DNA from: Chrysochromulina tobinii
Taxonomy: Eukaryota
Assembly: GCA_001275005.1 (NCBI GenBank)
Contig: JWZX01003333.1
Coordinates: 1-36,444, forward strand
Direction of reading: 5' to 3'
DNA length: 36,444 bases
Made by a program: the position numbers and the translations under genes. The notes under the pieces are model-generated. The model had not been told where the DNA came from. It ran no database searches and saw nothing but the letters and a program-made list of their open reading frames with translations. Below, piece by piece: positions 9,625 through 34,593 of this stretch. Position 1 is the first letter of the stretch. Every line of letters starts with the position of its first letter.

Positions 9625-10032
9625 AGCCTTCCCGAAAAAAGAAGGAGAGGCTGCGCCCGCGCTGCCTGTCGCACGCTGTCAAGTGGCGACGAGCCCTTGA
9701 TCTTCGTGAGGGATGGGGATTTCGTTTCCACGTTCCAGACGTTCACAGCACCTGTGAGGGGGCCGGCTGTGATTGTGGTTTTTGCTTATCCCCTGGCTTA
9801 TACCCCGTATAGCTGTGACCTAGATCTGCTGGACCCAGTGTCGTGACCACGCCGTCGGCTCGACGCTCCCGGGGACACTTCACCCCCTCGGGCACAGCCC
9901 AAGGACCCACCCTGCGGCAAAAGATCGTCGAGGTGTCCGACTTTTTCATGTACATGTATAGTAACGTCCGAACATCGGGTCGCGTCGGACTCCGAGGATT
10001 TCCGGACGCCAGCTCTCCTGCGCGCCGACGAG

Positions 10033-12591: not shown

Positions 12592-15500
12592 ATGGTCCTC
12601 CATTGCATGCATTCGAATTCTTTACGAACCTGCCCGTTGATTTCGAGGAAAGTTGCGTCATCGCTCTCGGCCCAGTGCACAGGCTGCTGCTGCTCGAGTT
12701 GCCTCCCTCCCGTGGGCAAAATGCCTCCAGTGGGCAAATTGCCTCCCGTGGTCGCACACACAGCCCCGTCCGTTGGAGGAGATTGCCCATACATCCTGGT
12801 GACTGGTGCTGGCGAGGCGGCCGTCAACGGATTGTACGCGCTCGCCGCTCTCGCCAACGAACGGCCCACTTGGAAGGCGCTCACAAACGACGACGCTATC
12901 ATCCAATTCAATACGGCCGCCGAGGCGGACGGCTGGTTTGGCGCGGGCACGGGTGCCATCTACGCCATCGTGGACAAAACGCACAAGTACATCGCCAAGG
13001 ATACGGCCAGCACGGGCCTGCGCTCGCCGCCAACCACTGGCTTCGTCGCACGCTCGAAAAAGGTCAAGGAGCCCGCCCCGACGCTCGCGTGTGCCGCGGT
13101 GGCTCCCTCGTGCGCGCGTGCCCGCGCCATCGCATCGGGGCTCCCGTTTGCGTCGGGCGCGCTCTTCACGCGCAGCAGCTCCCTCGTGCCTCGGACAACG
13201 TACACGCACGCGCTCGCCGCCGGACAGGCGACGCTGAGCTGGCAGGACGCAAGCGCGGCGACTCGCGGGGCCACCGGCGGCGGCACGAGCGGCGGCGCCG
13301 CATGGCTGCTGATCGCGCCGGACGCTGTGAGCGGTCAGCCCCTGGCGCTCTTGAGCGCTCCTGATGCACTCTCGCGGGCGCTAGGCCCGCCTGTGAACAA
13401 TTGGATCCCGCGACCGAGCAAGCACAAGCCGAACAAGGGTGAGGCTCCTCCATCTCTGCGCCTTGAGTGCGCGTGCGGCGCGGCGCATTTCGAGTCGGCC
13501 GAGGCGCTCGGGTACCTTCCACGCTCGTCGAGCTGCGCACGCGAGTGTACGCAGGCGCCTGCGAGTAGCGCTTGCCTTGGCTGCCTGTGCGTGGCTTGCG
13601 GTGTGTGTCCGCCGCCGCCGCCGCCGCCGCCTGCGCCGCCCTCGCCGCCGCCGCCGCCACGAGATCCTTCGCCGCCGCCGCCGCCGCCGCAGCCGACGAG
13701 CCAGACGCTGCTCGCGACGGGCTTCGAAGATGGAGGCGGAGGTGTCGAGGTCTCTGACTCGGGCGGCGGCGGTGGCGGCGTGCTCATGCACGAGATGCCC
13801 TCGCGTGCGGCGAAGCGAATGGGAAGCTACGGCTTACGGCTCGAGGTGCGCATGGCCTTTGAGGCCTCCCTAATTGCCACCCTAATTGCCTCCCTAACTG
13901 TGCCACCTCCTTTTTGCTCCCCAATTGCCTCCCTCCTCCCTAATTGCCTCCCTAATTGCCTCCCCCATTGCCTCCCTAATTGCATGCAGGTGCGCAAGGC
14001 CTTTGAGCCGGCGTACAAGGGCAAAGTTCAGCTGGGCTCCTTTTTGGTCGCGGGGGGCTTCACGCTCCTAACGGTCTCGCTTTGGGTTCGCGCCGAGGAC
14101 GGCGCGCAGCTGCCCTTGCCCAAACTAGACGTCCTCGACGCCGATGAGGGCTATGAGTGGCTCGGATCGGCCGAACCCTGCCTCGTGTCGGCGACCGAGT
14201 GGCGGCAGTGCTCGGCGACCGTGGCGCTCGATACGGCGCGTAGGGGTCACGCACTCGAGTGCAATCTGGTCGTGGGCGGTCACGTGGGCGTTCTGTACGT
14301 GGACGACATCCTCGTCGTCCAATCGATCGCATCGCCACCCAGCCCGCCGACCCCGCCGCCGCCCGCCCCGCCCCTCGATCCGATCCTGCGCATCGAGACA
14401 TTCGAGACCTCGAGCGTGCAGCCGTGGCCTGCGCCTGAGGTGGGCTCAGCCGAGGCGGCGCTCTACAGCCGCCTCGCGGCCCCCGTGCACGCGCGCACGA
14501 TCGTCGCTAGTGATGGTAAGGAGGGCAAGATGGTCGCGGAGATCCCGTCGGGCGGCGGGCGGCCGCCCTCCAAACGCGCCGCGCGGATTGACGTCCAGTC
14601 AGTCTACCGGCCCGCCTGGCGCGCGCGACTGGAGCTGGGCAGGTACGTGGTGCAGCTGAGCGAGCTCCGAGTGCGACTGTGGGGGCGTGCCACCAGGCAC
14701 GTCGAGAGGGGCGATGGCAGGCGGTTGGACGGCGACGATGGCAGGCGGTTGGATGGCGACGATGGCAGCGACGATGGCAGGCGGTTGGACGGCGACGATG
14801 GCAGCGACGATGGCAGTGGTGCCGGCGCCGGCGAGAATGTGCGCGTGACGATTGACGTGACCGACGAGTCCGTGGGCGGCGAGTGGGTGGGCTCTGCTCA
14901 GCCGTTGTACTTTGGGCCCGTGTGGAAGGAGCACACGGTGACGGTGGTGCTTGACACAGCGCGCTCGCTCCACGTGCTTTCGCTGGCTCTGATCGTCGGT
15001 GGGACGGCGGCGGAGTATTGGGTGGACGATGTGGCCATCGAGCAGGCCGTGCCGCCCCGTGGGCTGCGCGAGGGGATCCTGTCCATCGGCTTTGAGGAAG
15101 ATGAACCTCATGACGCCGCGGACGGCGGCCTCGCCATCGTACGCCACCCAGCTGCCCCCGCAGGCGCCCTCCCTTATAGCCGTTCGACTCTCGCGGCTCC
15201 GCTGAGCACCGCCGACCGGATGATCGTACCGCCCGCTGTCGGGCCTACAGGAAGCCGTTGCGCCAAGCTCGTGGTCGAGCAACCGGCCGAGCCGCCCTGG
15301 TACCCGAAGCTCGGATGGCGCCTGATTGCATGCTGATTGCATGCTGATTGCACGCTGATTGCATGCTGATTGCATGCTGATTGCATGCTGATTGCATGCT
15401 GATTGCCTCCCTCATCAGGTACCTGAAGCTCCGGCTCGGAACCTTCCGTGCCGCGAACCAGATGCTTCACGTGGCGCTCACTGCACGGCTGGAGGCCGAC

Positions 15501-18500
15501 GGCGGTGTCGGCGAGTCGCCGCAGCCAAGCCGTCACCACCATCACGGCCGGCGCAGCGCAGAAGTCGCCGCCTCCGCGTCGAATGACGTGCCCCCGTTTT
15601 TCACCGTCGACATCGTCGATGGCGCAGATTGGATCGGGAGTTGGGTGCACTTGAACCTGAGCTCGAGCGCCTGGCAGCGGTACGAGGTCTCGGTGCCACT
15701 GCCCTTTTCGCGCCGCGGCCACTTTCTCGACGTCGCTGTGGTCGTTGGCCATCGGGCGGGCACGTACCTGATCGATGACGTGAATGTCACCCAAACGCTC
15801 GCGCCGCCGCCGCCGCCCGCACCCCCGTCGGTCGCCTGGGGTGCCACTTACGACTTTGAGAGGTTGCCCAGGGTGGAGGGGGGCGCCATGGCCGTGCGTC
15901 TCATCACGTATACGCCCGAGGCGGCTGCGGGCGCGAGTGCGGACCTCTGTGCCTCGTCCGCCGGGCGCGCGGGTGGGCACGGCGCCATGATCACCGTCAG
16001 CCGGGCGCCAGCTCAGCCATGGCATACGCGGATCGGTCTCGGGCTCTTTGAAGCACAACGCGCGGCACTGGTCCTCAAATTCTCCGCCAAGCTCGCGTCG
16101 CCCGCCGCGGGCGCTCAGCTCACGCCGCCACCGCCGCCGCCGCCCTTCCCGCCGCAGCCGCCTCCCTCTGGTCTAGCCATGCCATGCACGAATGCACACG
16201 GCCCTACGGATTCCAAGGTCGAGAAATGCATGGGCTGGTGCACCGAAGGGGCCGCCTCCCAGCGTTCACAGCGCTGTGCCTATTGCAAGTGCCGCCAGTG
16301 CCCGGCATGCCTGGCGGCAGCGGCCACGGGTCCCTTTCTAACGGTGAGCGTCACCGACGCCGACAACGCCTCCGAGTGGCTGGGCTATTGGCAGAGACTC
16401 AACCTGAGCTCCGCCGAATGGCGACAGTTTAAGGTGACGGTGCCGCTCTCCGCCGCCAAGCGCGGACACACGCTCGAGACTTCGATCGTTCTCGGGCACG
16501 CGGCCGGCGTGTACCTGATCGATGATGTCTCCATCTACCAGACGGACCCGGTCGCGCTCGCTCTCCAAGTCGGATTCGAAGAGCCCGACGCCGCCGTCGT
16601 CGCTGTGGGCACAGGTGGCAGTGTCGCTGTGCCGGTGGCCGGGGGCGGCCTGATGACGGCCAATCTCGCCTCTGAGGCGGCGGCGCACGGCGGCGGCAAG
16701 GGCGCCGAGGTGGTGATCCGCGAGCTGTTCACACCAGCCTGGCAGGGGCGTCTGGAATTAGGCACGATCGTAGCTACCCTCAATGCGCTCACCATTCGCC
16801 TCTGGGGACGCGCGAGTCGCCCCGCGCCCATCCACGCCAATCTCATCGACAGCGCGGCGGCCTACGAGTGGTTGGCGTTTTGGGAGCCTCTCAATCTGAC
16901 GAACCACTGGGCAGAGCACTCAACTGTCGCGCCGCTCGACCCTACGCGCCGAGGACATCGACTCCAAATGTCCCTCGTGATGGGTGCCATCGCCGCCACG
17001 TACTCACTCGACGACATTTCACTCACGCAGAGCTGTGAAAACTGGCCGACGCCCTGGCTGCCGCCGGCGCCACTCGGCTCACTCTATACGGGCTTCGAGG
17101 ACTGCACTGGTGCTATCCCCCGGATGGACAGCGCCACGTCGAGCGGCGGCGCCCGGTACAGCGCGACGTCGGGCGGCGGCGCCCGAGACAGCGCGACGTC
17201 GGGCGTCGGTAGCAGCGGTGGCAGTCCGATCGCAGCAGAGCTGTACGCGCCCATGGCGGCGCGTACCGGCCAGCTGGGGATGAGGCTCAAGGTGCGGCGC
17301 CACCTGCATATTGATGAGGAGCGACCCAAGCTCATCCTCGGCAGCTTGATCCTGGCGGACGCGTCGCGCGCTTCGGATGCAATCCTTCTGTCGCTCTGGG
17401 CCAAGATGCAGGTGTGCAAGCAGACACCGTGGAACGCCTCTGAGCGCCACTCAGTGTCATTGAGTGCCCTTGGTAGTGTGCCCTTGGTAGTGGGTGCCAC
17501 AGTGGTCCAGTGCCACGGAGAGCCTAGAGTCCCTTGATTGCCGCTTGAGCTCCCTTGATTGCCCATTGATTGCCCATTGATTGCCCATTGATTGCCCATT
17601 GATTGCCCTTGATTGCCCATTGATTGCACTTGATTGCCCCTTGATTGCCCCTTGATTGCCCTTGATTGCCACGGAGAGCCTCCGAGTCCCACACCCCTTG
17701 ATTGCCGCTGATGAGCGCCAAGTGACCCCCGATCGTTCTTCCCACAGCCCGGCGAGACGGCGGAGCACGGCGAGACACCTCCGTCGATCACCTTCGAGCT
17801 ACTCGACGTCAACCAATCGTACACGTGGATTGGGCACTGGCGTGCGTGCAACATGACGCACGGGCGTGCGTGGACCAAATGTGCTGCCGAAGTCCCCATC
17901 ACGCCAGCTCTCGCGCTGCACGTGATTCAAGTGAGCATCCTCTTTGGAGCGGTACGCGCCTCGTATCTCGTCGATGATCTCGCCGTCGAGCTCTGATGAG
18001 CTCTGATGACCTCTGATTGCCTCCCTCATCAGGTACGCGCCTCGTATCTCGTCGATGATCTCGCCGTCGAGCAGCGCTCTCGTTCGAGCAGCGCCGCCGC
18101 GAGCCGCTCGTATGTGCTCCTGTCCGAAGGCTTCGAAACCGCCGCAAGGCCGCCCAAGCCGCTCGCCTACGGTGCGCATCTCGAGGCGCGCATGTGCATG
18201 CATGCATGCATGCATGCATGTGCTCACCACGGCGCCCGGTGTTCCCCACAGGTGCGCATCTCGAGGCGCGCATGTCCGATGGGGGGTCGGCGATAGCCGC
18301 GGGCATGCATGCCGACTTGCATGCCGCCGACGCGGCGCATGCAAGGCATGGGAGCAAGGCGGGCGCGCAGGTGCGCGTGCCGGCGCGCCTCTCCCCCCAC
18401 CAGCAGACCCTGAGCATGCATGTGCTCATCACGGCGCCCGGTGTTCCCCACAGGTGCGCGTGCCGATGCTTCCGCCGGCGGCGGGCGGCGGCGGCGCACG

Positions 18501-20557
18501 CAAGCCGCTGCTCGCGCTGGGCAAGTTTCACGCGGTCGCGGGCACGTTGCGCGTGGCGGTTTGGGCGAGGGCGGGCGCCGTCGCGGGCGCCACCGCCAAG
18601 GATCTCGCGCTCGGCCTCGAGGTGCTTGACGAAACTGACGAATTCCGCTGGCTCGGGAGCGCCACGACGGCGCCTGTGGGCAGCGCGTGGAAGAAGCTTA
18701 GTATGGAAGTGGACGTGGCCGAATCGGTCGATGGACACCTGCTTGACGTGTCCCTCACGTTTGGGGGCGGAGGCAATTACGATCTCGACGACCTCGAGAT
18801 CACGTGCCCGGAGCGCGCGCTGTCCACAATCCTCAACGTGACGTTCGAGACGAGCGACGCAGTGACCCTCGCCCCGCGCGTCGCCGCGGGCGCCCAATAC
18901 GACGCGCTTCGCACGGCGCTCACGCTCGACGCGCCCATCGCCGGCGCCGGGCGCGCGTCGGCCCACGGCGCCGTGCTGGGCGTCTCTCAGCGCTTCGTCA
19001 ACCCGAGCGATGCCAAATTACGCCTCATCAGGGTGAGCGCCGTTCCGGGCATCCTCAACGTCTCCCTGTGGGTGAAGCTGGCGGACGCGTCCTCTGTAGC
19101 CAGGCTCATCAGCAGTGGCGGCAGCGACAGCAGCGAGACTGGCAGCAGCAGCGGCGGTAGCAGCAGCAGCAGCAGCGGCGGTAGCAGCAGCGGCAGCAGC
19201 GGCGGTAGCAGCAGCAGCAGCAGCGGCGGTAGCAGCAGCGGCAGCACGGGCAGCGGCAGCACTGGCGGCAGCAGTGCAGCTTCGAAGAAGAAAAAGAGCT
19301 CGTCATCAAGCTCCCACAGCTCGTCATCATCAGGCTCATTAGCCAGCCACGGGCGCGAGCTGCTGGCAACGGCGAGCGGCGGCGCCAGCGCCGGCAAGGG
19401 CGGCAAGGGCGGCGGGTCGGCGCCCGGGGCGGCGCCGTCCGGTCCATACGTCAAGATCGAGGTCCTCGACGAAACTGCGGACTTCGAGTGGCTCGGCGCG
19501 TGGATGACGTTCGCCATCAGCGCCTCCGAATGGACGCGCATCGAAGCCATCATTCCCATTCACACCTCCCGTGCCGGCCATTCGCTCGACGTGGCGCTGG
19601 CAGTGGGAGCTGCGACTCCGGGGATACTGCTCGACGACATCGTCATCGCCGCCCCTTCGCTCGTGGGCGCCGGCGTACCGGTCAAGGCGCTGAGCGTCGG
19701 CTTCGATGATGTGGCAAGCACGCGACACATTGGCGTCATCTACTCGGGGGGCACCCCTGGCACCCCTACCATCCTCGGAGGCGGCCCCCATGTACGCTTG
19801 CAGCTGAGCTCTGATGACCTTTGATTGCCTACCATCCTCGGAGGCGGCCCCCATGTACGCTTGCAGCTGAGCTCTGATGACCTTTGATTGTCTTATTGAT
19901 GGCCTCTGATGGCCTCTGATCACCTCTGATCGCCCCTTGATTGCCTCTGATTGCCTCTGATTGCCCTCTGATCGCCTCCTTCATCAGGTGCGCGTGCAGC
20001 TGAGTTCCCCACACGCCGCCCGCACCGGGGTCGCCGGCGCGATGTTCAACGTGCTCGAACCGGTCGGCGCGCCCGCGACGGCGCGCCTGGCCATCTGCAC
20101 CGTCGTCAGCGCCATGCCGGGCGCCCTCAAGGTTGCCTTTTGGGCGCGAACGCCCGAACGGCATCCGGCGCCGCGCCTGGCAGTGGACTTTTTGGATGCG
20201 AGTGACGGCTGGCACTACCTCGGGTTAGCCGATGACTTCCGGCTGAGCACCACGTGGCAGCGCTTCGAGGTCTCCATCCACTTGGGCGCGAGTCGGGTGG
20301 GCCATAAGATCGAGGTGGCGTTACAACTTGGCCGAGCAGCAGAGAACCCTAATTGCCCCCTAATTGCCTCCTAATTGCCTCCTAATTGCCTCCTAATTGC
20401 CTCCTAATTGCCTCCTAATTGCCTCCAGGTGGCGTTACAACTTGGCCGAGCAGCAGGTGTCATCCTCCTCGATGATCTCGAGGTCTGGGGGCCTCGCTCG
20501 GCCGACGGGTACCCGCCGCGCGCCATGCCGCCGCTGCTGCCCGAGCCGGAACCCTAA
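12592..20557 (+). CDS. ~2270 aa repeat protein with about eight galactose-binding-like/CBM-like beta-sandwich modules and Pro-rich or Ser/Gly linkers; 9 exons
   Basis: Exons 12592-13845, 13990-15299, 15419-17411, 17748-17951, 18033-18171, 18252-18370, 18454-19791, 19988-20314 and 20429-20557 join with consistent phases at GT-AG sites. The recurring module is GFE...LWxR...YEWLG...WxxxxVxxxL...GHxLxxxLxxG...YxxDDxxI. The start codon is uncertain (12592 or 12721). Confidence 0.75.
13846..13989 (+). other. Intron (144 nt): exon-duplicated 5' end and (CCTAATTGCCT)-type repeats
   Basis: Starts GTGCGCATGGCCTTTGAG; the next exon starts GTGCGCAAGGCCTTTGAG; ends ATGCAG. Confidence 0.85.
14710..14818 (+). 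repeat. Coding tandem repeat (GDDGRRLD / GDDGSDDG)
   Basis: Repeated GACGATGGCAGGCGGTTGGAYGGC units within exon 2 of the large gene. Confidence 0.85.
15300..15418 (+). other. Intron (119 nt): exon-duplicated 5' end, (CTGATTGCATG)n array, family A 3' end
   Basis: GTACCCGAAGCTC versus next exon GTACCTGAAGCTC; ends GATTGCCTCCCTCATCAG; splicing restores PPW-YLKLRLG. Confidence 0.88.
17412..17747 (+). other. Intron (336 nt) with an internal (TTGATTGCCC)n array
   Basis: CAG|GTGTGC...TTCCCACAG|CCC restores WAKMQ-PGETAEH; the array is flanked by two copies of TGCCACGGAGAGCCT..GAGTCCC. Confidence 0.8.
17952..18032 (+). other. Intron (81 nt): perfect 40 nt duplication of the next exon, family A 3' end
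   Basis: 17952-17991 equals 18033-18072; ends CTGATTGCCTCCCTCATCAG. Confidence 0.9.
18172..18251 (+). other. Intron (80 nt): 24 nt duplication, family B 3' end
   Basis: GTGCGCATCTCGAGGCGCGCATGT at 18172 and 18252; ends GCATGCATGTGCTCACCACGGCGCCCGGTGTTCCCCACAG. Confidence 0.88.
18371..18453 (+). other. Intron (83 nt): 12 nt duplication, family B 3' end
   Basis: GTGCGCGTGCCG at 18371 and 18454; ends GCATGCATGTGCTCATCACGGCGCCCGGTGTTCCCCACAG. Confidence 0.88.
19112..19340 (+). repeat. Coding Ser/Gly low-complexity linker
   Basis: (AGC)n/GGC repeats encoding SSSGGSSSSSSGG. Confidence 0.85.
19792..19987 (+). other. Intron (196 nt): degenerate exon duplication, internal ~62 nt re-duplication of the donor junction, family A 3' end
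   Basis: GTACGCTTGCAGCTGAG versus next exon GTGCGCGTGCAGCTGAG; ends CGCCTCCTTCATCAG. Confidence 0.82.
20315..20428 (+). other. Intron (114 nt): 28 nt duplication and (CCTAATTGCCT)n array
   Basis: GTGGCGTTACAACTTGGCCGAGCAGCAG at 20315 and 20429; ends GCCTCCAG. Confidence 0.88.
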
Positions 20558-20907
20558 TTGCCTCCTAATTGCCTCCGAATCGCCTCCTTATTGCCTCTTA
20601 ATTGCTCGAGCCGGAACCCGCGGCGTCGGGGCAGTTGTGAGAGAGCGGCGCCGCGAACTCGCCGCCTTTCTGACGCATGTGGAACGATGCCTGGATGATT
20701 GCGTTATGCCTGGATGATATCTATGTTTGTTCCTCTAAGACGTCCTAATAGCGCGAGCTCTAGCGGTAGCACTACGAGTACGTTTACGATAAGCCGTCGA
20801 GTCGATGCATGGCGTGCATGGACCATGTGGACCGCATGGTGCCCGTCGGTGCGGGTGTGCATTGCGTTGTGCACATTGACACAAAAAATACACTCTTCGG
20901 GGCGACC

Positions 20908-22746: not shown

Positions 22747-23481
22747 TCACTTCTTGGCGGCCATCAGCCTCGTCACCTTTGAGGCAATCTCCATCTTCTC
22801 CTCGGCATCAAGCTCACGCCCGAGGACCTCCTCTTTGTTCTTAATCGAGGCCTCTATCAGGCCTTCGAGCGTGAGCGGCACCTCCGACACGGACGAGGAG
22901 CGTGTCGACTCGCCTACACTCTTTCGGGGCGCGGCCGCGACGGCCACCGGAGCCGGTGCCGGCTCGTCACCGGAGAGCACCTTCGCCAGCAGCGGCTTCA
23001 CCTCCTCGTCTCGACACACCTTGCCGCCGAAGCCGTCCGGCTTCAGCTTTTTGCAACCCGCCACGGGCGACGCCGGCTTCGAGCCAGGCGGTTCCATGTC
23101 CCCATAGTTGCGTTTCTTGAACTGCAGAAGAGCGGAGGAGGCGAAGCGTGTCGGGACCCATGGACAATGAGTGTGTTCACCGGAGTGGCAGCTGGAATAT
23201 TCCTTTGCAGAAAGGGCTCGCTGACAGAAGGTTTCACTGGCAGTAGGCTTCAGAGGCTGGGTCCGGGACCGCTGTTTCCATGCATGCCTTCATGTGCATG
23301 CTCCAGAAGGCGGACACACCTGCACCTCCCCTCGATCGAGAGGATTGACGATTGCAAACGATGGGGCGATGGGTGCGAGGGCTGCGATGCATCCGCCTAT
23401 GGCGGCGCGTCGGCCGACGCCAAGCTGCAGGCCACTGGCAGTGCCGATCACGACCAAAAGTCCGAACAAAGTGCGCAACAT
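22747..23481 (-). CDS. Small, probably plastid/thylakoid-lumen-targeted protein; exons 23481-23320 and 23121-22747
   Basis: Signal peptide MLRTLFGLLVVIGTASG, then an RR-hydrophobic-SFA segment resembling a Tat signal. Intron 23122-23319 (CAG|GTGTGT...TTCTGCAG|TTC) joins EVQ-FKKRNYGDMEPP in frame. Confidence 0.7.
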
Positions 23482-23654
23482 TTTATTGCCGCACCTCGCC
23501 GAAATCTCGGTGCTGGACTGACGAAATCTGAATGTTTTGGGTTGAGGGAAGAAGCGGAGGACAGTGGCACGAAAGCTTCACGCACTTACATTAAGTGCTT
23601 CGAACAAGTCTCCACCAAAGATGGTCATATGCAGACAGGTCTGACAGGACGCAA

Positions 23655-26035
23655 ATGCTGAGCCTCGAGCGCCGGCTTTCGGCGCAGCTGAGCTTCGACG
23701 ATAGCAAGCAAAAGATCCTCGCGGCGCTGCTCGCCGATAATGAGGACCTGCGCAAGCAGAACATCTAGCTCGAGATGGAGAACCGCCGGCTGCAGCACAC
23801 GCTCGACCTCGAGGAACGCCGCCAACCACGAGATGGCGTCCGCGAATCTGTTTTCGGACGCGTACGATTGGATCGTGGACATCCAGCTGCTTTCCGACGT
23901 GTCCAAACAGGGCTGGAAGGTCCAGTTCTCGGGCGAATTCCTCGCCGGCCTTGACAAGGCCGAGCGCGCACAGGTGCTCTCGCAAGGCAAGTGGACTGCC
24001 GAGGACGGCGCGCAGAGCACGGATGGCTTCGGGCAGCCGCCGGCGTCCGCGTGGCGCGGTGCCATCGTCGCCGTGCTCGGCCTGTACGACAAGGGCAAGA
24101 CCTTCGTGCTCAACAACATCTCGAACGCGAAGCTGCCCTCGGGCAAGAAGGTGGCGACCAAGGGCCTCTCCTTCAAGCACGTCGACTGATTGCATGCTGA
24201 TTGCATGATGAGTGCCTCCCTCATCAGGTGGCGACCAAGGGCCTCTCCTTCAAGCACGTAGAGGTGTCCGGCGGCACCAAGTTCATCCTGCTCGACTCGG
24301 AGGGCTCGTTCTCACCGGTCAAGGTTTCGAATGAGCTCTCGGTCGTCGAGAAGGAGGCCACAGAGCTCTTCCTACAGGAGCTCATCTTCGAGATGTCGGA
24401 TTACTTCCTGTGCGACGGATTGCGTCTGATGGCGTCTGATGGCGTCTGATGGCGTCTGATTGCGTCTGATTGCGTCTGATTGTGTGTGATTGCCTCTGAT
24501 TACATCTGATTGCCTCTGATTACGACGAGTGCTTCTCCTTGCCGCTGATTGCATCGGATTACCTCTGATTGCCTCTGATTGAGATGGATTGCCACCGATC
24601 GACTGCAGGTGCGTCGTCAACGACTTCACCTCGCTTGACCAGCGCTATCTCGACAAGTTGACACGCAATCTCCAAAACTCCAAAAAGGACTTTCGCGAGG
24701 TGATCGTGGTACACAACTGTAAGGAGGTCATTGACGAGGATACACTCCGATACGTGTGGGAGACGCAGGCGACTGCCATCTATGGCAGCGGCACGCCGCA
24801 GACGACGCTTGTAGCCGCGACCGACCCGGCCACGAACACCCTCGTTGAGAAAGCCGTGGGCTGGTTCAAGACGCCCTTTTCCCGCCACGTGCTCCTCGCG
24901 AACTCAGACTCCGATCTCGGAGAGAATCTCAACCCGTGGGCCTTCTCCTTGCTGCGCTACTGGCTCAAGAGTGAGCTGTTGATGACCTCTGATGACCTCT
25001 GATGGCCTCTGATGGCCTCTGATGGCCTCTGATGACCTCTGATGACCTCTGATGACCTCTGATGACCGCTCGTCTCAAGAGTGAGCTGCTGATGAGCGCT
25101 GATGAGCTCCGATGGTCGTTGATGGCAGTTGATGGCCGCTGATGACCTCCGATGGCCGCTGAGCGCCACCGATCGCCCCATAGGCGTCTTCATCCCCGTC
25201 GCTCGCGATTTCTCGGTCGTCGACGCGGTGGTGCACTATTCGAATCAGAAGCTCGCCACGCACTTCAAGACGCACCCGCAGCTGGCGCTCACGCACACAG
25301 AAGAGGCAGGTACAGAAGGGCGCGTCTGGTACATCCGCTCGCACTCGGAGGCTCCGGAGCGATTGCGGCTTCATCAGCTGTCCGTCGATGCTTCCGGCAT
25401 CATGCTGGCGCGTCCGGACTCGTACCTGCCGCCTGTCGACATCGTGCGAGAGCCGGACGCGTACAACATCTACATGGACCTGCCCGGCATGACGCGTGAC
25501 CAGGTGAAGCTCTCCCGCCAAAACGTGGTGACCATCGTCAAGGCCGTCGAGCTGCATGCAGGTGCTCACCGCGGCGCCCGCCCCTCTTCCCCACAGGTGA
25601 AGCTCTCCCGCCAAAACGTGGTGACCATCGTCAAGGGTACCCGGGAAAGTGGCCTGTCAGACCGTGAGATCGCAACCTCGGTCACGCGCCAGGAGCGCAA
25701 GGCAGGAGAGTTCACGATGACCTTCCGGATCCCCGAGGAGTATCAGGTGAGATTGCCTCTGATTGCCTCTGATTGCCACTGATGGTCTCTGATTGCCTCT
25801 GATTGTCTCTGATTGCCACTGACCTTTCGGATCCCCGAGGAGTACCAGGTGAGATTGCCTCTGATTGTCTCAGATTGCCTCTGATGGTCTCTGATTGCCA
25901 CTGACCTTTCGGATCCCCGAGGAGCAACAGAGACGATGGGAGTCGGCCGACATGGAGAATGGCGTGCTGCGAATCAGATACCTCAAGGACGAGGAGGAGG
26001 AGGAGGGCAAGGGCGAAGTTAATCCTATTGCATAG
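23655..26035 (+). CDS. P-loop GTPase-like domain fused to a C-terminal HSP20/alpha-crystallin domain; 6 exons; the 5' coiled-coil part has an in-frame TAG (23766) and a frame discontinuity (~23815)
   Basis: VAVLGLYDKGKTFVLN (Walker A), TKG, LLDSEG, VVHN; then PPVDIVREPDAYNIYMDLPGM...ERKAGEFTMTFRIP...MENGVLRIRY (HSP20). Exons end at 24150, then 24228-24409, 24609-24970, 25184-25503, 25597-25746, 25931-26035. Alternative ATG at 23833. Confidence 0.8.
24151..24227 (+). other. Intron (77 nt): perfect 32 nt duplication, family A 3' end
   Basis: GTGGCGACCAAGGGCCTCTCCTTCAAGCACGT at 24151 and 24228; ends GTGCCTCCCTCATCAG. Confidence 0.9.
24410..24608 (+). other. Intron (199 nt) made of (CTGATKGCST)n decamers
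   Basis: CT|GTGCGACG...ACTGCAG|GTGCGTCG restores DYFLCVVNDF. Confidence 0.85.
24971..25183 (+). other. Intron (213 nt) with (CTGATGRCCT)n and an internal copy of its own donor junction
   Basis: CTCAAGA|GTGAGCTG at 24964-24978 recurs at 25074-25088; the acceptor CCCATAG|GC restores WLKSVFIP. Confidence 0.83.
25504..25596 (+). other. Intron (93 nt): perfect 40 nt duplication, family B 3' end
   Basis: 25504-25543 equals 25597-25636; ends GCATGCAGGTGCTCACCGCGGCGCCCGCCCCTCTTCCCCACAG. Confidence 0.9.
25747..25930 (+). other. Intron (184 nt) whose 3' end copies the upstream exon end
   Basis: GACCTTYCGGATCCCCGAGGAGYAHCAG occurs three times (ending 25746, 25848, 25930); splicing restores EEYQ-RRWESADMENG. 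Confidence 0.83.
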
Positions 26036-26659
26036 GGCGGCAGCGCTCCCCGAGCATCGTCTATGAAGCCTGCAAGCAGCAAGAAGATGCCCTTGCCGCG
26101 CACTAATCCGGCCTGAGGCATTCCGCGGGCACCGCAAGCAGGTCGTACGTTACGTAGTAGACGCGTCAGTACGTAGTAGAGTTTAGGCAGGCATTGAGTT
26201 TGAGATGCATCGTGTACTGTACCACACACATAACCCGCACACCCGAAGGGAACGTAAACGGAACGCCGCACGGCCATGTGCCGTCCGGGAGCCATGCCGG
26301 GAGCGTGCACCTTGCACCTTGTCCTTGACGCTTGAGAGACCTGACTCATAGTCATACAGACTTTCATGTTGAGCCCGGTGAGCGGACGGGATCTAGACGG
26401 AAGGATGATGCATGCGAGTTGAGTTTGTTGCATACGGCAACACCACCGGTCGACGCCTGCAATGTGGGTTTTCGAGGTGTGCCAAACAGTATACATGGAC
26501 GGGACTGAAATGAAACGAGTGTGAACGTCTACGAGGTGTGAAACGTGTCAAGTCAAGCCTATACATAAACAACAGACAACCGTACGAAAGCCTAACTGCA
26601 GTACTTGACTTGACTTGACAAGTGTTAAAAAGAGGTGTTAAGTCTGTCCGGAGGTGTTA

Positions 26660-28571
26660 ATGCCTGTCGTGCCGCTGCTTGCGGCTGCCTTCCTCCTTGG
26701 ACATGCCATCTGGCCTGCCGCCGCGAGCTGGACCAGGCACGAGGTGTTCCTCACCTGGGCTCGCCAGCAGGGGCTACGCCTTGGACCCGTTTGCATTGTG
26801 CCCTCGACTCTCGGCGGCTTCGGTGTTTTCGCGGAACGCGACATTGCACTCGGGGAAATGGTGTTTGCCGTGCCGAAACGATTGCACGTGGGCTTGAAGG
26901 CAGCATTAGCTGACCCAAGCTGAGGCGCAGAGTTTGAATCTCGCGTCGAGGATGGCAATGCTCTTGGCGTGCTGTGCGCGTTTCTGGCCAAAGAGGCCTT
27001 GTGCAGCGACGGAGCCTTCAAACCGTACATCGACACCCTGGACTTGACCGTCGCAAATCCCGACTATGTGCAGTTCTGGACCGAGGAGGAGGTGGATCTG
27101 CTCTCCGGCACCGCCGCGTACCAGATCGCTTTGGACGTGCGGGCCGAGGCCGAGGACGTCGTCAGGTTTGCGCTCAGTCTGGATTCCCTCCGGAGGTGTG
27201 TGCATCAGGACCTATCGGCGCGAGGTGTACCGATGGACGCGGCGGTAGTCGAGGAGAGGATCGCGACGTGCGTCCGCCGCGCACACGCCGCGGTGCTCAG
27301 CCGCTCGTTTGACGACCTGAGCGACTTTGGCGCGCGGGAGATGATCCCTCTCCTCGACGTGCTGCAGCACGGCAAGCCGCCGTCCGTTCAACATCGAACG
27401 AAGGGGTCCGTGGACTTTGAACAGCCCGTGGATTGGACGGAGTGGGCTGATGAGGATGGAAGAGATGAGTGGGAGGAGGCGGCTCTCTCAGAGCCCTGTC
27501 TCGTCGCTCGCACGCGGCGATCTGTAGCCGCAGGTGAGCTCATCTTTTTTGGCGACCACCCTGAGTGCCTCCCTGAAGACCTCTCTGAGTGCATGCTGAT
27601 TGCCTCCCTCATCAGGCGAGGAACTACTCAACTTTTATGGAGACCACCCACATTTTGTGTTTGCGATGCACTACGGATTTGTGCCAAAGGTCGGTGTGCC
27701 TGCAGGCGTGCCTGCAGGCGTGCCTGCAGGCGTGCACCAAATGGCGACGTGCGTCCTGAACCTCGAGGGCGTCGCGGCGAAGATGGGCAGGACGATGGGC
27801 CCCGCCATCGCCTTGGCCGCGCAGTCGCGTGCGCTCGAGCTTTCGGACGACTGGACGCCTGACGACTTCGATGCGCACGACGACGATGCCTACCAGGGAG
27901 GGAGCGGGACGGAGCCGGCGCCGATCGAAGTGGAAGATGGGCACACATTCTTGGCCCATGTGCTCGCAGATGCTGCGCTGTGGATGAGGCTGCCCGAGCT
28001 CACCTTCTTCGTGAGCGACGAGCTCATTGAGCTCGCAATCTCTGAGGCCGAGATTGGCCGCTTGCCGTCGAACCAGTACGGCGCGGCGGCGCTCGTGGTC
28101 TGTGCGCGGCTGTGCGCGCTCGATGGGAGGACCCTCGAGGCCGTCGGCGGCCAGCAGACCGACCCGAACGAACAGCTCGAGGTGTGGGCACGTCCTCTGC
28201 CTCGTGTGCGCATGCAAGTGCTCACGACGGCGCCCACCTCCCCACAGGCCATGTTTCGTCAACTCCTCGACTCGGAAGATGGGCGGCTCTCGGCCGAGAA
28301 CGACTGGTTAGCGGCCTCGTTGCTCAGGGAAGCCGCGAGGGAGCGGCTGGCCGTGTGCCACGAGCCGCATGGGTGGCTATCCCAGGCGATGATGACGGCG
28401 AGGGAGGCTGGCGGAGCACCAGCACCACGGGAGGCGTGCGTTCGGCTGGCACGCGAGGTGCGCGAGGCGGAAGTGCTCGTCCTCGAACGGCTAGCGCATG
28501 GAGATGTCGCCGAGAGGATGTTCACCACACCCGAGATGCGACTGAATCGTGCAGCACAAACGCAAACGTAA
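26660..28571 (+). CDS. SET-domain protein lysine methyltransferase (Rubisco LSMT/SETD3-like) with a signal peptide; exons 26660-27533, 27616-28181, 28248-28571; in-frame TGA at 26921-26923
   Basis: GGFGVFAERDIALGEMVFAVP, FKPYIDTL, FWTEEEVDLLSGT, VLSRSF, MIPLLDVLQH and AGEELLNFYG...YGF. Confidence 0.85.
27534..27615 (+). other. Intron (82 nt): diverged exon duplication, family A 3' end
   Basis: CTCATCTTTTTTGGCGACCACCC in the intron versus CTCAACTTTTATGGAGACCACCC in the next exon; ends CTGATTGCCTCCCTCATCAG. Confidence 0.87.
28182..28247 (+). other. Intron (66 nt, in frame), family B 3' end
   Basis: GAG|GTGTGG...GCATGCAAGTGCTCACGACGGCGCCCACCTCCCCACAG|GCC. Confidence 0.8.
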
Positions 28572-28637
28572 CTGAGCTGTTCGTGGCGACCTTCCAAGAA
28601 AAGTAATATTGTTTACTAATTTTCGCGCACTGTTGCT

Positions 28638-28711
28638 AGTTTGAGAAAGGGTCAGTTGAATCGACACACAAGGCGAGTTTGAGAAAGGGTCAGTTGAATC
28701 GACACACAAGG
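28638..28711. repeat. Intergenic 36 bp perfect tandem duplication
   Basis: AGTTTGAGAAAGGGTCAGTTGAATCGACACACAAGG at 28638-28673 and 28676-28711. Confidence 0.9.
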
Positions 28712-28895
28712 TACCGACCAGCCACTACCACGCGAAACACTGCCACGCAGTGGTCGCGTCGCTCGGTGGACTAACACACCGGCGAGGATTTTTAAGGATC
28801 CGGCCCCCACCCCCGTCCCGGCCACGCGGCGAGTTTGTGCAGCTTCACAGATTGCTTCACAGCCAAATTGGTTTCTTCGGAGTCGGGGAAAATCG

Positions 28896-30074: not shown

Positions 30075-30257
30075 GAGGAGGACACCAGTGACAGGTCAAG
30101 GCAGCGAGCGGGGGAAAGACGCATACCGGTACCGAATGATATGGAGAGATTCGATGGAGAGATTTTCGGCTAAGAGCTCGAGTTACCCTTCGACGCTGGT
30201 TCCCTTCATTGTTACTTTTCAGACACTTTGGCGCAGCGCGCACCGCTGACCGCCTCT

Positions 30258-31622
30258 CTACAAACTCCGTTGCGTGCACGCGCCCCTCATGAGCTTCCGA
30301 CGCAGGTCATCGGGTGGTAAGGGCTCCTCGTTGCGGTGGGGACGTTTCTTAGCGGCCCTCGCGGCCACTCCCAGCCGCGGCTCGCGCACGTCGCCCACAT
30401 CGGCCTCGTCCGCACATGCCGCCGCGCATGCCGCTGCACCGGTCGCACCGGGATCGCCTGTCGTAGGCAGACGCATTCCAAGTTTGGTCATCAGAGTGCG
30501 CGTGCGCTCGGACGCGATCTCGTGAGGCTCCAGATTGTGCTCGAGGGCGTCGCGCAGGGCGTCGCCGTCGAGTTCGAGGGTGAGAGGCTCCATGCGGCTC
30601 AGCGCACGAAGGGCAAGAGCGCGAGCGCTCGAGCGGCTCTGCGCATGAAGGCACTGCATTAGATCCGGTACAAAGTACGGCAGCTCGACCGTGGCCTCGA
30701 GCGAGTCCAAGGCGAGCAGAGCGCGCTTGCGCATCGTCTCGTCGTCAGACGACAGTCGCGGCACGAACCAATCGACCGCCCAGGTTCCCGCCGACCACTC
30801 CGGATTCGCTCGCCACGCCGAGCACGCGTCGCCGAGGACGCGGCGGGCACGGGCTCGCCACAGACGGGAGACGGCCTTGAGGTTGCGCAGGGAGCGCGCG
30901 TCGAGGTCAGCCAGGCAGGCGCCCCAGCAGTCGGCGTCGGACCTCACGAGGCCATCGGCAGTGTCCACCTCGACCTCGTCCTCAGCAGTCGGCGGCGTGA
31001 ACAACGGCTCGGCGAGCGCCTGCGCTCGCTCCTGTGGAGTCAAGTCATCTTCGGCCTCTAGGATGATCTGAAGCACTTGGCAGGATTTGCCTCGGAGCAC
31101 TTCGCTGATGGCGATGGTCGCCATGCGCGCGACCGAACGAAACTCCAAGAGCTGGGAGGCACGCAGCACGGCCATCCGACGCGGCAGCGACAGCCTCCGC
31201 AGCTTATCAAGGGCAGAAAGAGAGGCCGTCGTCGGCCTGGAGGTGAAGAAGCGCGACACAAGCGCGTCGGCGACTGCGACGAGATCGACGAGTGTCTGGG
31301 CCGGGGCGGCCACATGCACGCAAGGCGCCGAAGGATACATCGGAGCATCAGAGAGCGATGCCGTGGCGCGCGATAGACGCACGATCTTCCCATCTGATGA
31401 GATTACTTCCACGCTGTCATGCGTGACGGTCAGCGGCGTCGAGTCTGTGTACGTTGACAGCATCCGAAGCGGACCGGCGCGGGTGAGACAAGAGGCCATC
31501 TGGTCGTCCGATCGTAGCAGGAAAGTGGCCGGGCGCTCGCTCTCGGATTGTCGTTTCGCGCCTGACGAGCAAACCTCTCGTCTTCCCACTGCCCGCGGAA
31601 GCAGAAGTGCTCTCACAGCCAT
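30258..31622 (-). CDS. Skp1-like domain fused to an F-box-like motif and a HEAT-like repeat (start may be an internal Met)
   Basis: VEVISSDGKIVRLSRATA (Skp1 N-terminus); ASQLLEFRSVARMATIAISEVLRGKS...ILEAEDDLTPQE (Skp1 C-terminus); CWGACLADLDARSLRNLKAVSRLWR (F-box-like); VPRLSSDDETMRKRALLAL (HEAT-like). Confidence 0.7.
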   Translation of the reverse strand: MAVRALLLPRAVGRREVCSSGAKRQSESERPATFLLRSDDQMASCLTRAGPLRMLSTYTDSTPLTVTHDSVEVISSDGKIVRLSRATASLSDAPMYPSAPCVHVAAPAQTLVDLVAVADALVSRFFTSRPTTASLSALDKLRRLSLPRRMAVLRASQLLEFRSVARMATIAISEVLRGKSCQVLQIILEAEDDLTPQERAQALAEPLFTPPTAEDEVEVDTADGLVRSDADCWGACLADLDARSLRNLKAVSRLWRARARRVLGDACSAWRANPEWSAGTWAVDWFVPRLSSDDETMRKRALLALDSLEATVELPYFVPDLMQCLHAQSRSSARALALRALSRMEPLTLELDGDALRDALEHNLEPHEIASERTRTLMTKLGMRLPTTGDPGATGAAACAAACADEADVGDVREPRLGVAARAAKKRPHRNEEPLPPDDLRRKLMRGACTQRSL

Positions 31623-31822
31623 GGTAAGTGTCTTGCGGGACGCACTTCTGTTAGCTAGGTGGTTTCAAATAATATTGATGTGTAGACACTTAGGCCACGG
31701 TTGTTTAGGGGCCAGGTTTCGCGCAATGTCTGCAACGGTATTCCGAAACTGTTCCGAAACGTACTCATCCGTCACGCTCTAGAGTTCCACACTTCGTGTC
31801 CATTTATAATCAGAAACGAGTT

Positions 31823-34593
31823 CTAGTCCTCCTCAAGGTAGTAGACCTGCAGCCAGGCCATTTCGCCGTGATGGCCGTAGGTGTTGTTGGTGGTCGCCTC
31901 CGCGTACAGGTTGACGCCGCTGATGAGCGGTGGCGGCTCGAGACCGTGCTCACTCCGCCCCCAGACGCACGGGGGCTGGGCAATGTAGCCGGGCTCATCA
32001 TAGACCGTCCCCGCGAGGCGAGGGTCGCCCCGTCCGCCGTAGATGGGGCGCTCCTCGCACAGGAGCGTCTTGTTCTGGCAGCTCGTGTGCACGGCTGGGT
32101 CGCACGTGTAGAGCGAGATCGCGAGACATGTGGGCGCATGGCAGTGGAAGTTGGCCTTGACAAGCCGTTGGTGGGGCGACGTGGCCGACGGCTTCGGTTG
32201 GAAGATGCCCAGGCTGGTGATCGTGTGGTTGCACTGGGCTGTTGGCGTGCCAGGTGCGCACTGCGCGACGTCGTACTCGACCGGCGATCCGAGTCCCCAT
32301 GTATTCCGGTACCTGATCAGGGAGGCAATCAGGTGCCATCAGGTGGCACTCAGGTGCCATCAACGAGGCCGAGCCCTGATTGCGGGAGCCATCAGCAAGG
32401 CCGGGCCCTGATTGCGGGAGCCATCAGCAAGGCCGAGCCCTGACTGCGGGAGCTTACACGTTGGTGTGGAAGCTCGGGTCGTACGGCTGCACCCAGTAGC
32501 GGAACTTGAGCTGGTACTCGAGAGGCTGGTCAGCCCACGGCGTGGGTTGGTCCGCGTCGAGGAGGACCCACTCATGATGGCAGGCAATCTGGCCGCCAGC
32601 GTATGTGCGCAGATCGCACGCGGGGTTTTTCTCGGCGAGGGTATCCATCCGGGGCGGCGGCGCGCAGGTGTTGTCGAACCCGACCTTGCCTTTGCTACTA
32701 TTGGTCACGGGGTCAATGTACTCGAGCGTGCCCTTGGCAAAGCCAAAGGCGGGCTCGGGCGCGGGGCAGATGCACATTGGGGCCTCGAGTTGGAGCAGCG
32801 CAAGGGTCGTGGTGGTCTTCTGACTATGGTGGTCGAGCCCAAACGTCGGGCCACTCCCGATCGCGCTGATGATGCTCAGCAGGGACGCGTCGCCCTGAGC
32901 GTCGTCCTCCAAGCGGAACGAAAAGTGCTGTGGCGTCGTGCCGTTGAGTGGACGCTCGAGGACGAGGGTTCGCTTCCCATCGAGCACAGCGCTCGAGAGC
33001 ACCTTGATCGAGGGTTCAAGGAGCTCTCCGGCGGCGTGGTTGTACAGCCGACGCTCACTCACCTCCCCATCGCCCCCGCCCACGAGGATCGCGTACGGGC
33101 CGGTCGGGTCTCCAGGGGCACCACCGCCCATCGTAGTCGCATTGAACCCAACGCCAAACCACTCGTCGGCCGGGCCGGTGATGGTCAGGGTAGCTGTCTG
33201 GTTGGGCTCCGACAGGCTCACTTCAAGGTGCCAGCCGGAGAGGGCGCTGACGACGCCGGCCGCGCGCCGCTTGCCGGCATGGTCCTTGGCTTTGCCGCCA
33301 CATGGACTCGTAGGAGACTCGGGCGGTGCGGAATTCCATGTGGCAGCGCACGACACTGCGCCCGTGGCAGCGCCCGTGGCAGCGCCCGAGGCAGCGCTTG
33401 TGGCAGCGCTCGGCGTCAGCGTCAGGGCGCATCCGGCGGGGACCGTCTTCGACTCCACACTGTGAGTCGTCATCGAGGCGCCACACCTGATGAGGGAGGC
33501 AATCGGACTGATGAGGGAGGCAATCGGACTGATGAGGGAGGCAATCAGACTGATGAGGGAGGCAATCGGACGCCATCAGAAGCCATCATTTGACTCCACA
33601 CTGTGAGTCGGCATCGAGGCGCCGCACAGAGAGGAGCCAAGACCCTTGGCCGCCGCGAAGCACTCGGCCGCGCTCTTCGGACTCCCCACAGCCCCCTCGC
33701 AGCCACCGACTTGCCCAGAGCTGAGCGGCACGTAGCCCGCCTGTACATGCTTGATGATCCGAGAGGTCACTGGGCACTCTAGAAGGCCGCTGTACAGGAT
33801 GTCGGAGGGGGACTTGGGGGGCACGTTGCGCGAGCCGGGAGACGAGCGCCGACGCGGGCAGCGGCCCCGGCACGAAGGGAGTGGACCCATCCAGCGACAT
33901 CAGATCTCTGTTCCACGTGTCGATTTGCATCGGCGTGATGTGCCACGTCGTTGGCGACTCGATGACCTGAACATAGCCGGGGGCGTACCCGTGGAAACTC
34001 TTGCGGTACTCCCCGCCATTGGCGCCGCCAAAGTCCTGCGAGGTCGGAAGGGTCTTGCCCCCCACCTTGATGCCGGGCGAAAGCTCGCGTACGACCCATG
34101 CATAGTCCGCGGTAGTAGAGCCGTGCCCATGCCCGTGACGCCGAGGGTCGTCGGGGCCGCCAAGCTTGACCTTCTCCAAGACCGACTTGTTTCCCGTCAT
34201 GGTGCTCTCAAAGTGGTGGTTGTACGCCACGTTGATCGGCACCGAGACCTCCTCGCCAGTGGCCGTGCGCCGCACCTGGTTGGTCTCAAAGCCGACGACC
34301 GCCATGCCCTTTCCGGCGTATTTGGCGACGATGGCTTGCGGGAGCGGCACCGGGTCAAGCAGCGTCCAGAAAACCTCACCGTATGTCGACCGGATCATCG
34401 GCGAGTACAAGTCGAAAAATTCCACGTCTCCTGGGTAGTCCGAGAAGCGCTTGGGGAACTTGGACCCGGACTTGTCCGCACCGGGGGTTGCCGAGAGCGG
34501 ATAGTCGCCATTCATGTTCTCCGCCTTCGGCCCTTGTGCGGTGGTTGCCACGAAGAGGGAGAGGCCCAGCGACAAGCACAAGGTGCGAAGCAT
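31823..34593 (-). CDS. Secreted His-rich protein resembling a copper monooxygenase, with a DOMON-like domain; exons 34593-33628, 33486-32458, 32312-31823; frame discontinuity ~33838
   Basis: Signal peptide MLRTLCLSLGLSLFVA; YNHHF, CHH, FHCHAPTC and GHHGEM motifs; DOMON-like ATLTITGPADEWFGVGF. Confidence 0.7.
32313..32457 (-). other. Intron (145 nt) with ~33 nt internal repeats, family A 3' end
   Basis: GT|GTAAGC...CTGATTGCCTCCCTGATCAG|G restores HTNVYRNTWG. Confidence 0.85.
33487..33627 (-). other. Intron (141 nt): 36 nt duplication and four tandem family A acceptor units
   Basis: GTGCGGCGCCTCGATGCCGACTCACAGTGTGGAGTC versus exon GTGTGGCGCCTCGATGACGACTCACAGTGTGGAGTC; (TCYGATTGCCTCCCTCATCAG) x4. 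Confidence 0.87.

Follow-up and report, generated by a model that had tools for sequence, protein, structure and literature searches.

Introns opening with a duplicate of the following exon in Chrysochromulina tobinii, and their possible origin in repair templated on existing introns

Two common intron types were sampled in the haptophyte alga Chrysochromulina tobinii, and roughly half of these introns begin with a 12–50-nt copy of the exon that follows them. We analyzed a window of 36,444 nt (contig JWZX01003333.1, the whole stretch) together with 0.7 Mb of related loci, which amount to about 1% of a genome. The next-exon copies, the exact removal of the introns wherever RNA allowed a check and two instances of copying between unrelated genes make it likely that new introns arise by repair templated on existing introns, and we put a specific form of this process, template-switch repair that copies an existing intron into a target duplication, at somewhat better than even. 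Intron gain as such is inferred. The origin of new spliceosomal introns is a long-open question; the accessible part of a current survey credits discrete transposons for bursts of intron gain (PMC12130899), and the dense footprint in C. tobinii is of a different kind.

Next-exon copies and splicing in the window

An independent recount of the window agrees with the 18 host introns of the first-pass annotation, 11 with a next-exon copy and seven without (Table 1). An unbiased scan, which compared every GT or GC with every AG|GT or AG|GC 35–700 nt downstream, recovered ten of the 11 sites named in that annotation as exact or near-exact copies. The exception is the diverged copy at 27534, where the exon now begins with GC; of 300 random windows, about 1% attain its local score of 17. 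The weakest individual sites are 15300 and 18371, with copies of 12–13 nt. AG precedes the donor at six of the 11 sites and TG, CG, CG, AT or CT at the other five, as had been remarked for several donors. A homologous repeat at 14944–15045 has no interruption, in contrast to the intron at 17952. The private tails of the type-2 ends are identical between introns 18172 and 18371, and the type-1 end includes a short CTGAT...ATCAG hairpin. The mirror-type intron at 25747, which closes with a copy of the previous exon's end, has two copies inside. Rfam gave no match within 12000–36444.

Table 1. Introns and one related lesion in the window
Position	Strand	Feature	Next-exon copy	Other characters
13846..13989	+	intron	17/18	CTAATTGC-type repeats
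15300..15418	+	intron	12/13	type-1 end; TG|GT; retention truncates
17412..17747	+	intron	none	internal duplication flanking repeats
17952..18032	+	intron	40/40	type-1 end; CG|GT
18172..18251	+	intron	24/24	type-2 end
18371..18453	+	intron	12/12	type-2 end
19792..19987	+	intron	15/17	AT|GT; later 63-nt tandem duplication spans donor
20315..20428	+	intron	28/28	CTAATTGC repeats
20542..20619	+	unspliceable lesion of same kind		13-nt duplication flanking CTAATTGC repeats
23122		intron	none	
24151..24227	+	intron, spliced (RNA)	32/32	type-1 end
24410		intron	none	
24971..25183	+	intron, spliced	none	inside: copy of upstream exon end plus donor
25504..25596	+	intron	40/40	type-2 end; spliced despite being in frame
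25747..25930	+	mirror-type intron, spliced	none	GT from insert; AG from copy of previous exon's end
27534..27615	+	intron	diverged, ~30 nt, with indels	type-1 end
28182..28247	+	intron, spliced, 66 nt	none	whole copy (64/66) of L034 intron
32313		intron	none	
33487..33627	-	intron	34/36	tandem type-1 ends; CT|GT

RNA contigs from two runs skip 24151–24227 (77 nt, GT..AG, with 34 letters fitting both sides) and 25504–25596 (93 nt, GT..AG, 43 letters), so the exact removal proposed in the first-pass annotation is borne out at both introns. An RNA joint together with a homologue alignment shows precise splicing of the 28182 intron as well, and at these three sites splicing restores the coding sequence. 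At 27534 and 33627, RNA contigs halt at the boundary and then resume, with no joint among the matches listed; for the seven sites in gene 12721–20557, no covering RNA contig is among the matches listed. Removal of the eight introns of that gene leaves 2227 codons open, and keeping any single intron truncates the frame in seven of eight cases. The exception, 13846, is in frame and stop-free, and its splicing is suggested by repeat alignment. The lesion at 20542 provides the stop codon of its gene, about six codons early; its repeats resemble those of intron 20315 and may derive from this local template.

We give almost no credence to the idea that these structures are assembly artefacts at repeats. 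The repeats are high-copy and the window holds at least two likely errors (23824 and 26923), but RNA skips exactly the predicted lengths and a read-derived 1148-nt DNA unitig, possibly from the same culture, contains both 18172 and 18371 with zero differences. The lesions are also seen again in further assemblies and in strains that have diverged, and the copies contain mismatches.

Anatomy of the footprint across related loci

After redundant loci were removed (19 of 128 sequences for the end-motif acceptor count and 22 for later counts), type-1 or type-2 ends were present at 447 acceptors across 109 loci, a sequence shared by unrelated loci. A next-exon copy accompanies 156 of the 317 acceptors with exon-like downstream sequence, against a null of 2.4% de-duplicated by downstream sequence, which supports the genome-wide pattern proposed from the window. 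Once the search pattern's own hits are discounted, the copy is found at 60 of 157 type-1 and 33 of 44 type-2 acceptors, and GT directly follows the acceptor at 102 of the 157 and 33 of the 44.

Each lesion has the anatomy D–insert–D, where D is the duplication. In 82 clean cases, D measures 12–50 nt with a median of 25, and 49 copies are perfect; 12 nt is the floor of the duplication filter, and shorter repeats lie outside the count. The long and variable duplications described for the window are therefore general to these cases. Inserts are 22–192 nt long and have variable 5′ ends, with type-2 core offsets of 1–43 nt. In the 25 of 82 cases where it is testable, the mean microhomology between D and insert is 2.16 nt, compared with 0.46 nt in 2000 shuffles (maximum 1.12), and it drops to 1.7 nt once two doubtful rows are removed. 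Mismatches in D show no concentration in its first bases across the 82 cases, and adaptation of the donor is thus not seen.

An exact cut is possible in 80 of 100 isolated D-flanked inserts, compared with a null of 29 (maximum 44), and in 74 with GT only, compared with a null of 9.6. The cuts fall into three registers: GT or GC opens D in 59 inserts, AG closes it in 12, and both sites lie within D in 9. The view that the duplicated target gives the donor and the insert the AG consequently holds for the first register, one of the three, and among inserts overlapping a donor already present, many lack an AG end. Plain AGGT tandem duplication had been discounted in the first-pass annotation; AG precedes D in just 36 of the 82 clean cases, and the nine inserts with both sites inside D each carry filler, the set having been built that way.

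The broad range of D, in place of a short fixed target-site duplication (TSD), also bears on a conventional, MITE-like introner, with CTGATGA...TCATCAG ends and a short TSD, whose long copies would reflect later tandem duplication or slippage. Shared type-1 and type-2 ends and the short hairpin at the type-1 end fit such an element, as does the geometry of classes 4/5 and 6/8/10 in Symbiodinium and Polarella glacialis; there and in Aureococcus, as here, the 5′ site comes from the TSD start, the 3′ site from the insert, and several registers are possible (10.1101/2020.10.14.339549, accessible part). Those introners are discrete elements with fixed 3–8-nt TSDs and, in Symbiodinium, inverted repeats, whereas here D spans 12–50 nt, the 5′ end is not fixed and templates can be traced to individual host introns. 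Perfect 7-nt inverted ends occur in two of 50 type-1 and none of 24 type-2 inserts (none above 4/7), and the absence of TIRs noted in the window is thus the rule. The first 12–50 nt of each intron are unique, so that the introns are not similar from end to end, and inserts differ among serial events at a single site. We regard this reading as already weakened and very improbable.

Existing introns as probable templates

The 28182 intron matches an intron of locus L034 at 64 of 66 positions over its whole length, with unrelated flanks, and it opens with 30 nt that belong to a RING-finger exon in L034, an unrelated gene. Judged by sequence, it is a complete copy of an intron born in that RING-finger gene. 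In a second pair, the intron of L089 consists of its own 25-nt D followed by the 3′ part of the L047 intron, including 9 nt of the exon copy of L047; the junction matches at 13 of 15 positions, and a 28-nt probe occurs in just these two of the 128 sequences. The new observations here are the whole-intron copy and this second donor–recipient pair joined through microhomology, so that copying between unrelated genes is represented once as a whole (L034 to 28182) and once in part (L047 to L089). The exon-derived birthmark shows the direction from donor to recipient, which cases of intron transposition rarely offer. A junction search for further recipients among the 82 cases returned a single clear one, where the null gives 0–1, the other hits being weak and at null level. 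Neighbouring inserts share repeat units in nine of 79 pairs (1.8 expected, P=0.0004), in a test designed after an earlier, cruder one gave no signal (P=0.23). Identical type-2 tails all lie within one locus in five of five cases, two of which are tandem duplicates.

Under template-switch repair, a DNA end left by a break or stall within a transcribed gene would switch onto an existing intron, probably guided by microhomology, and would then rejoin upstream of its departure point, leaving the 12–50-nt duplication around a piece of intron. Any intron might serve as template, with those of the same gene perhaps somewhat favoured. A GT at the start would act as a survival filter, with only exactly spliced-out lesions persisting in exons; D would afterwards decay, and the branch-site repeats would expand through slippage. 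Inserts lie in sense orientation, and just two of 100 unit hits fall outside genes, in 14.8 kb of which 9.9 kb is retroelement; on both grounds we lean towards a transcription-coupled process. At L043, the copy continues into the start of the following intron rather than exon 3, which indicates that its template was unspliced.

The searches for a dedicated element bear on an alternative, TPRT in trans, in which a non-LTR retrotransposon protein would nick the target and prime either on the AG-terminated RNA of an excised intron or on a master RNA resembling a SINE, with 5′ truncation and with staggered nicks duplicating the target. Long variable duplications, 5′ truncation with microhomology, sense orientation and the bounding of the 28182 copy precisely by GT and AG are all expected of it. 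Four inserts stop at a type-1 AG ahead of a target that starts with neither GT nor GC, and at L064 an insert does so without microhomology; exonic cases carry the AG end, which selection also requires there. The many D-flanked inserts that are repeats only and lack a terminal AG are difficult to derive in this way, and we saw neither an A-tail nor a fixed cut-site motif beyond G|GT. The near absence of units outside genes is not typical of LINE-driven insertion. A motif heuristic found no non-LTR RT in the loci, and distant-duplication and RT-motif searches found no autonomous EN-RT partner in the 0.7 Mb; nor did this sample yield a master element or a fixed TIR. The first-pass annotation had suggested a search for a longer autonomous element sharing the 3′ ends; the templates found are other host introns. 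We consider TPRT in trans unlikely. A long-insert search returned only three distant matches (686–2405 nt), which we take to be repeated-domain genes, and the end motif had zero matches in viral-contig and genome-contig collections. Neither a telomerase-type origin of the repeats nor their likeness to snoRNA C/D boxes gained support in a literature search.

A broader form of the template-switch account, in which ordinary introns without any master element template new ones, in whole or in part, by transcription-coupled repair or reverse transcription into a 12–50-nt duplication, thousands have been created and the birthmark gives a directed pedigree, has in our view an even chance of being correct. 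Counting against template switching are the lack of an empty allele among the alignments listed, the shared 24151 site and the junction-like nested copies, as well as the negative result of the cruder locality test and the restriction of cross-gene copying to two pairs.

Repeated sites, strains and known systems

Thirteen of the 82 clean cases are nested, of which ten remain after exclusion of three whole-unit tandems; in these ten, the inner exon-end copy ends 1–9 nt beyond the inner donor and resembles a spliced junction. L071 and L083 show serial hits at one GT, with different inserts in each event, and the eight introns of a nine-repeat gene occupy eight different alignment columns. At the 24151 site, where the window's copy is perfect, the diverged paralogue L108 also carries an intron, so that the site was either hit again, in a parallel gain, or rewritten; it also has an intron where gene 23833–26035 is uninterrupted. 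The first-pass annotation's reading of the copies as an age series finds no clear backing. Its description of the process as ongoing likewise finds none, with no presence/absence difference in close strains among the alignments listed: nine locus pairs yielded no empty alleles there, the differences being confined to repeat number and to indels between genes. From the lake runs X20 and X21 came only repeats and short pieces, and their low word shares carry no weight. When 90 spliced junctions were used to look for empty sites, the matches were all to repeats internal to the genes concerned.

These observations raise a reading with no net gain, in which a break in an old intron is patched from spliced mRNA, as an abortive intron loss, and the 5′ part is replaced from the next exon, the 3′ part from the previous exon or the middle by a junction copy. 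Such remodelling would account for copies starting precisely at the junction, for their sense orientation, for nested junction copies, the perfect copy at the paralogue-shared site and the serial hits at L071 and L083. It would need two patches for the AG|GT-inside-D register (9/100), does not fit the L043 copy, which holds intron instead of exon 3, and leaves unexplained both the cross-gene copies and the GT that follows so many type-1 and type-2 acceptors; we hold it to be distinctly improbable. With the birthmark, the nature of the template (RNA or DNA), the choice between gain and remodelling, and parallel gain become directly testable in this cultured alga with a public genome.

We found no such intron system described in the literature covered, which lies mostly outside subscription journals. 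In its accessible part, the survey of introners scores zero families for C. tobinii (PMC12130899), plausibly because every intron begins with unique exon sequence. Non-LTR-derived introners make up about 5% of the classified families there and share with the present case a possible retro-mechanism, but no element family turned up in the loci sampled here. Introners of marine Chrysochromulina MAGs, from the same genus, also lack TIRs and co-opt one splice site, and differ in a 4-bp TSD and a 5′ site carried by the element (PMC9860276, accessible part); the two end motifs of C. tobinii are absent from the searched part of its supplement.

Other comparisons, likewise drawn from accessible parts of the sources, concern repair and transposition. 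Gains by staggered-DSB repair in Daphnia resemble ours in their terminal direct repeats, internal repeats and frequent parallel gains at one site, but their filler is mostly of unknown source, whereas here other introns supply it and roughly half of the introns of two types bear the footprint (PMC4202315). Templated sequence insertions similarly patch in a distant template, class 1 with a TSD and class 2 with microhomology; in the present case the patch is taken from an intron and gives rise to an intron that is spliced, and neither poly(A) nor a TTTT/A site is present (PMC5110952). Intron transposition offers a parallel to 28182, where an entire intron was copied into a G|G junction, and tandem AGGT duplication to the register with AG|GT inside the duplication; transposition models involve no long duplication and pure duplication no foreign filler, whereas both occur here in one lesion (PMC3443670).

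Exon copies and their splicing

In this GC-rich eukaryotic DNA, 11 of 18 introns were described in the first-pass annotation as beginning with a direct copy of the exon that follows. By scanning every GT/GC against every downstream AG|GT/GC, we recovered 10 of the 11 named copies (12–40 nt); the copy at the eleventh site, 27534, is present but diverged, and the count of 18 introns in the window, 11 of them with a copy of the next exon, stands. RNA contigs from sequencing runs X14 and X16 skip 24151–24227 and 25504–25596 exactly, and likewise the introns at 24410, 24971 and 25747; the intron at 28182 is skipped in an X14 contig, and contigs also skip those at 32313 and 23122. Retention of the segments in mRNA, the first of the outcomes that the annotation had set against its own proposal, is excluded where tested. 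An exon of the gene at 23833–26035 matches haptophyte GTPase-HSP20 proteins (Prymnesium parvum, 88%). The C. tobinii protein KOO21802.1, from the 90% cluster of the best such match, has both 24151 and 25504 spliced out, and we attribute the DNA to C. tobinii or a very close relative. Homologues contain the duplicated peptide once. In the 2227-codon gene, seven of eight introns truncate the reading frame if retained, and the frame points to splicing at its seven named sites. One read-derived unitig spans two named sites. We consider an artefact extremely unlikely. The minus-strand intron at 23122–23319 is an ordinary spliced intron with neither repeats nor copy; it belongs to a short transcript for which three RNA runs give coverage.

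A pattern scan, centred on type-1 acceptors with GT directly after them, collected at least 127 loci (725,946 nt). An upstream copy scoring at least 10 was found at 156 of 290 acceptors in these loci, compared with 2.4% of shuffled pairings, which bears out the proposal of a genome-wide pattern; the figure is 156 of 317 when limited to exon-like downstream sequence. With the pattern's own hits left out, a copy accompanies 60 of 157 acceptors of type 1 (CCTCCCTCATCAG end) and 33 of 44 of type 2 (GCTCACCACGGCG...CCCACAG end), the two common 3'-end types. The direct duplication of host sequence flanking the insert, D, measures 12–50 nt (median 25; 82 clean cases, 54 loci), with 0, 1, 2, 3 and 4 mismatches in 49, 14, 13, 5 and 1 cases, respectively, perfect copies being favoured by detection. 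Of the 82 copies, 36 have AG immediately before D and 67 have G (exonic GTs, 7% and 27%); the usual bias at 5' splice sites would fit this excess, and so would microhomology to the AG of the insert. The pattern is real, genome-wide and spliced where testable.

Inserts and splice registers

The inserts (22–192 nt) consist of branch-site-like units (CTGAT, CTAAT, CTCAC), have no fixed 5' end and lack a consistent inverted repeat. They do not pass the tests that membership in introner families sets for a discrete element, and a search of the collected loci found no long element with these ends. That the inserts are decayed MITEs is very improbable. Over a mean of 2.16 nt (25 testable cases; null, 0.46), the last bases of D agree with those that usually stand just ahead of the insert start.

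Of 100 duplication-flanked inserts whose flanks are free of repeats, 80 can be cut out exactly: at the start of D (58 GT, 1 GC), inside it (7 GT, 2 GC) or at its end (9 GT, 3 GC). The last of these is a mirror type, exemplified by window 25747, in which a copy of the preceding exon closes the intron. Random targets permit 29 of 100 (maximum 44; GT alone, 9.6). A large number of additional lesions lie across existing donors, and these lesions often lack a terminal AG. We therefore prefer to see the GT start as a filter acting on a broader kind of lesion.

Repeat clusters are on the same and opposite strands in ratios of 690:35 within 1 kb and 203:205 beyond 8 kb, and 98 of 100 unit hits in the window fall inside genes (21.6 kb, by boundaries drawn in this analysis). 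A rare orientation exception occurs at locus L072 (5299–5448), where ~2.7 head-to-tail copies of a whole intron-like unit lie antisense within an intron.

Existing introns as probable templates

The intron at 28182–28247, in a SET-like gene (weak Pfam match, E 0.18), does not copy its own next exon. It is identical at 64 of 66 positions to an intron of another locus, L034, and the flanks share only one G on each side. The first 30 nt of the L034 intron duplicate exon sequence of L034 itself that amounts to half of a RING finger (matches to six RING families, E 0.016–0.39, below cut-offs); the direction of copying is therefore from an L034-type intron to the window. In the L089 intron, its own 25-nt duplication is followed by the 3' part of an L047 intron. 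This part takes in 9 nt of the exon copy of L047, and the join lies within a 13/15 match. Junctions were then searched systematically, and no further clear donor–recipient pair emerged; as a rough estimate from n = 2, two pairs in ~1% of a 59-Mb genome (PMC4580454) would imply that pairs are very common. Same-gene templating was negative in a crude test and positive in a later unit-based one (9 of 79 versus 1.8). The RING-finger gene of L034 (~4500–5300) is split by numerous duplication-type introns that lie close together and in some cases are nested.

We lean towards template-switch repair onto existing introns, with selection keeping exact-splicing products. An end within a transcribed gene would switch by microhomology onto an existing intron, copy it partly or wholly and rejoin 12–50 nt upstream; products spliced exactly would be kept by selection. 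Element-free intron propagation has a fair chance, and spliceosome-made intron circles (PMC10996645) are a possible RNA template. TPRT in trans on excised introns predicts a near-identical lesion but would need an AG end that stays constant, together with an EN-RT partner. A search of the collected loci found no non-LTR RT. We consider this route rather unlikely.

No two of the eight introns in the nine-repeat gene share an alignment column, and L108, a paralogue of the gene at 23833–26035, contains an intron at a point that is continuous in the window gene. At the 24151 site, both L108 and the window gene are interrupted, and the two introns start with their respective exon variants; this shared site counts against simple gain. 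Ancient positions, the third outcome that the annotation had set against its proposal, were examined on this one paralogue and the internal repeats. Ten nested cases contain an apparent spliced junction, and three loci (L071, L083, L089) each carry, in series at one and the same GT, two inserts that differ from each other and in the length of their duplications. Remodelling of old introns by an mRNA patch explains all three observations. It does not account for the inside-D register or the cross-gene copies, nor for the copy in L043, which continues into the next intron; we judge it improbable. In Daphnia, parallel gains are frequent (43 of 90; PMC4202315). No empty allele in close strains appeared among the alignments listed, and the description of the process as ongoing therefore rests on perfect copies alone.

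Known systems and neighbouring features

The introners of dinoflagellates and Aureococcus (10.1101/2020.10.14.339549) share this splice geometry but have fixed 3–8-nt TSDs, in contrast to a D of 12–50 nt. Amoebophrya introners have 3–5-nt direct and 8–20-nt inverted repeats (PMC7789003), and those of marine Chrysochromulina have 4-bp TSDs (PMC9860276). In its workings the pattern resembles staggered-break gain combined with intron transposition (PMC4202315, PMC3443670), and also templated insertions (PMC5110952). In their accessible text, a 2025 introner survey gives none for C. tobinii (PMC12130899) and the genome paper mentions introns once (PMC4580454). We found no published description of the pattern in the literature searched. 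We regard the pattern as a new variant of intron gain; the donor pairs, the three registers and the RNA joints come from the present analysis.

Other features of the window
Feature	Position	Strand	Remark
Retroelement-like block	1–9900	minus	Pfam match to DUF4326 only
ORF	221–1381		may be a tyrosine recombinase
1493-aa ORF	1869–6350	minus	YIDD RT motif
2227-aa protein	12721–20557		nine diverged repeats, proline-rich linkers; no Pfam match for two exons tested
Extra base	23824		absent from contigs of culture DNA run and RNA runs
Stop	26923		contigs of culture DNA run and RNA runs read C
Intergenic 38-nt tandem duplication	28635–28710		in high-DNA-depth stretch (dispersed repeat)

The extra base and the stop are likely window errors that break two genes. 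The retroelement-like block is presumably a DIRS-with-methyltransferase, and motifs of its 1493-aa ORF resemble, by eye, a C5 cytosine methyltransferase.
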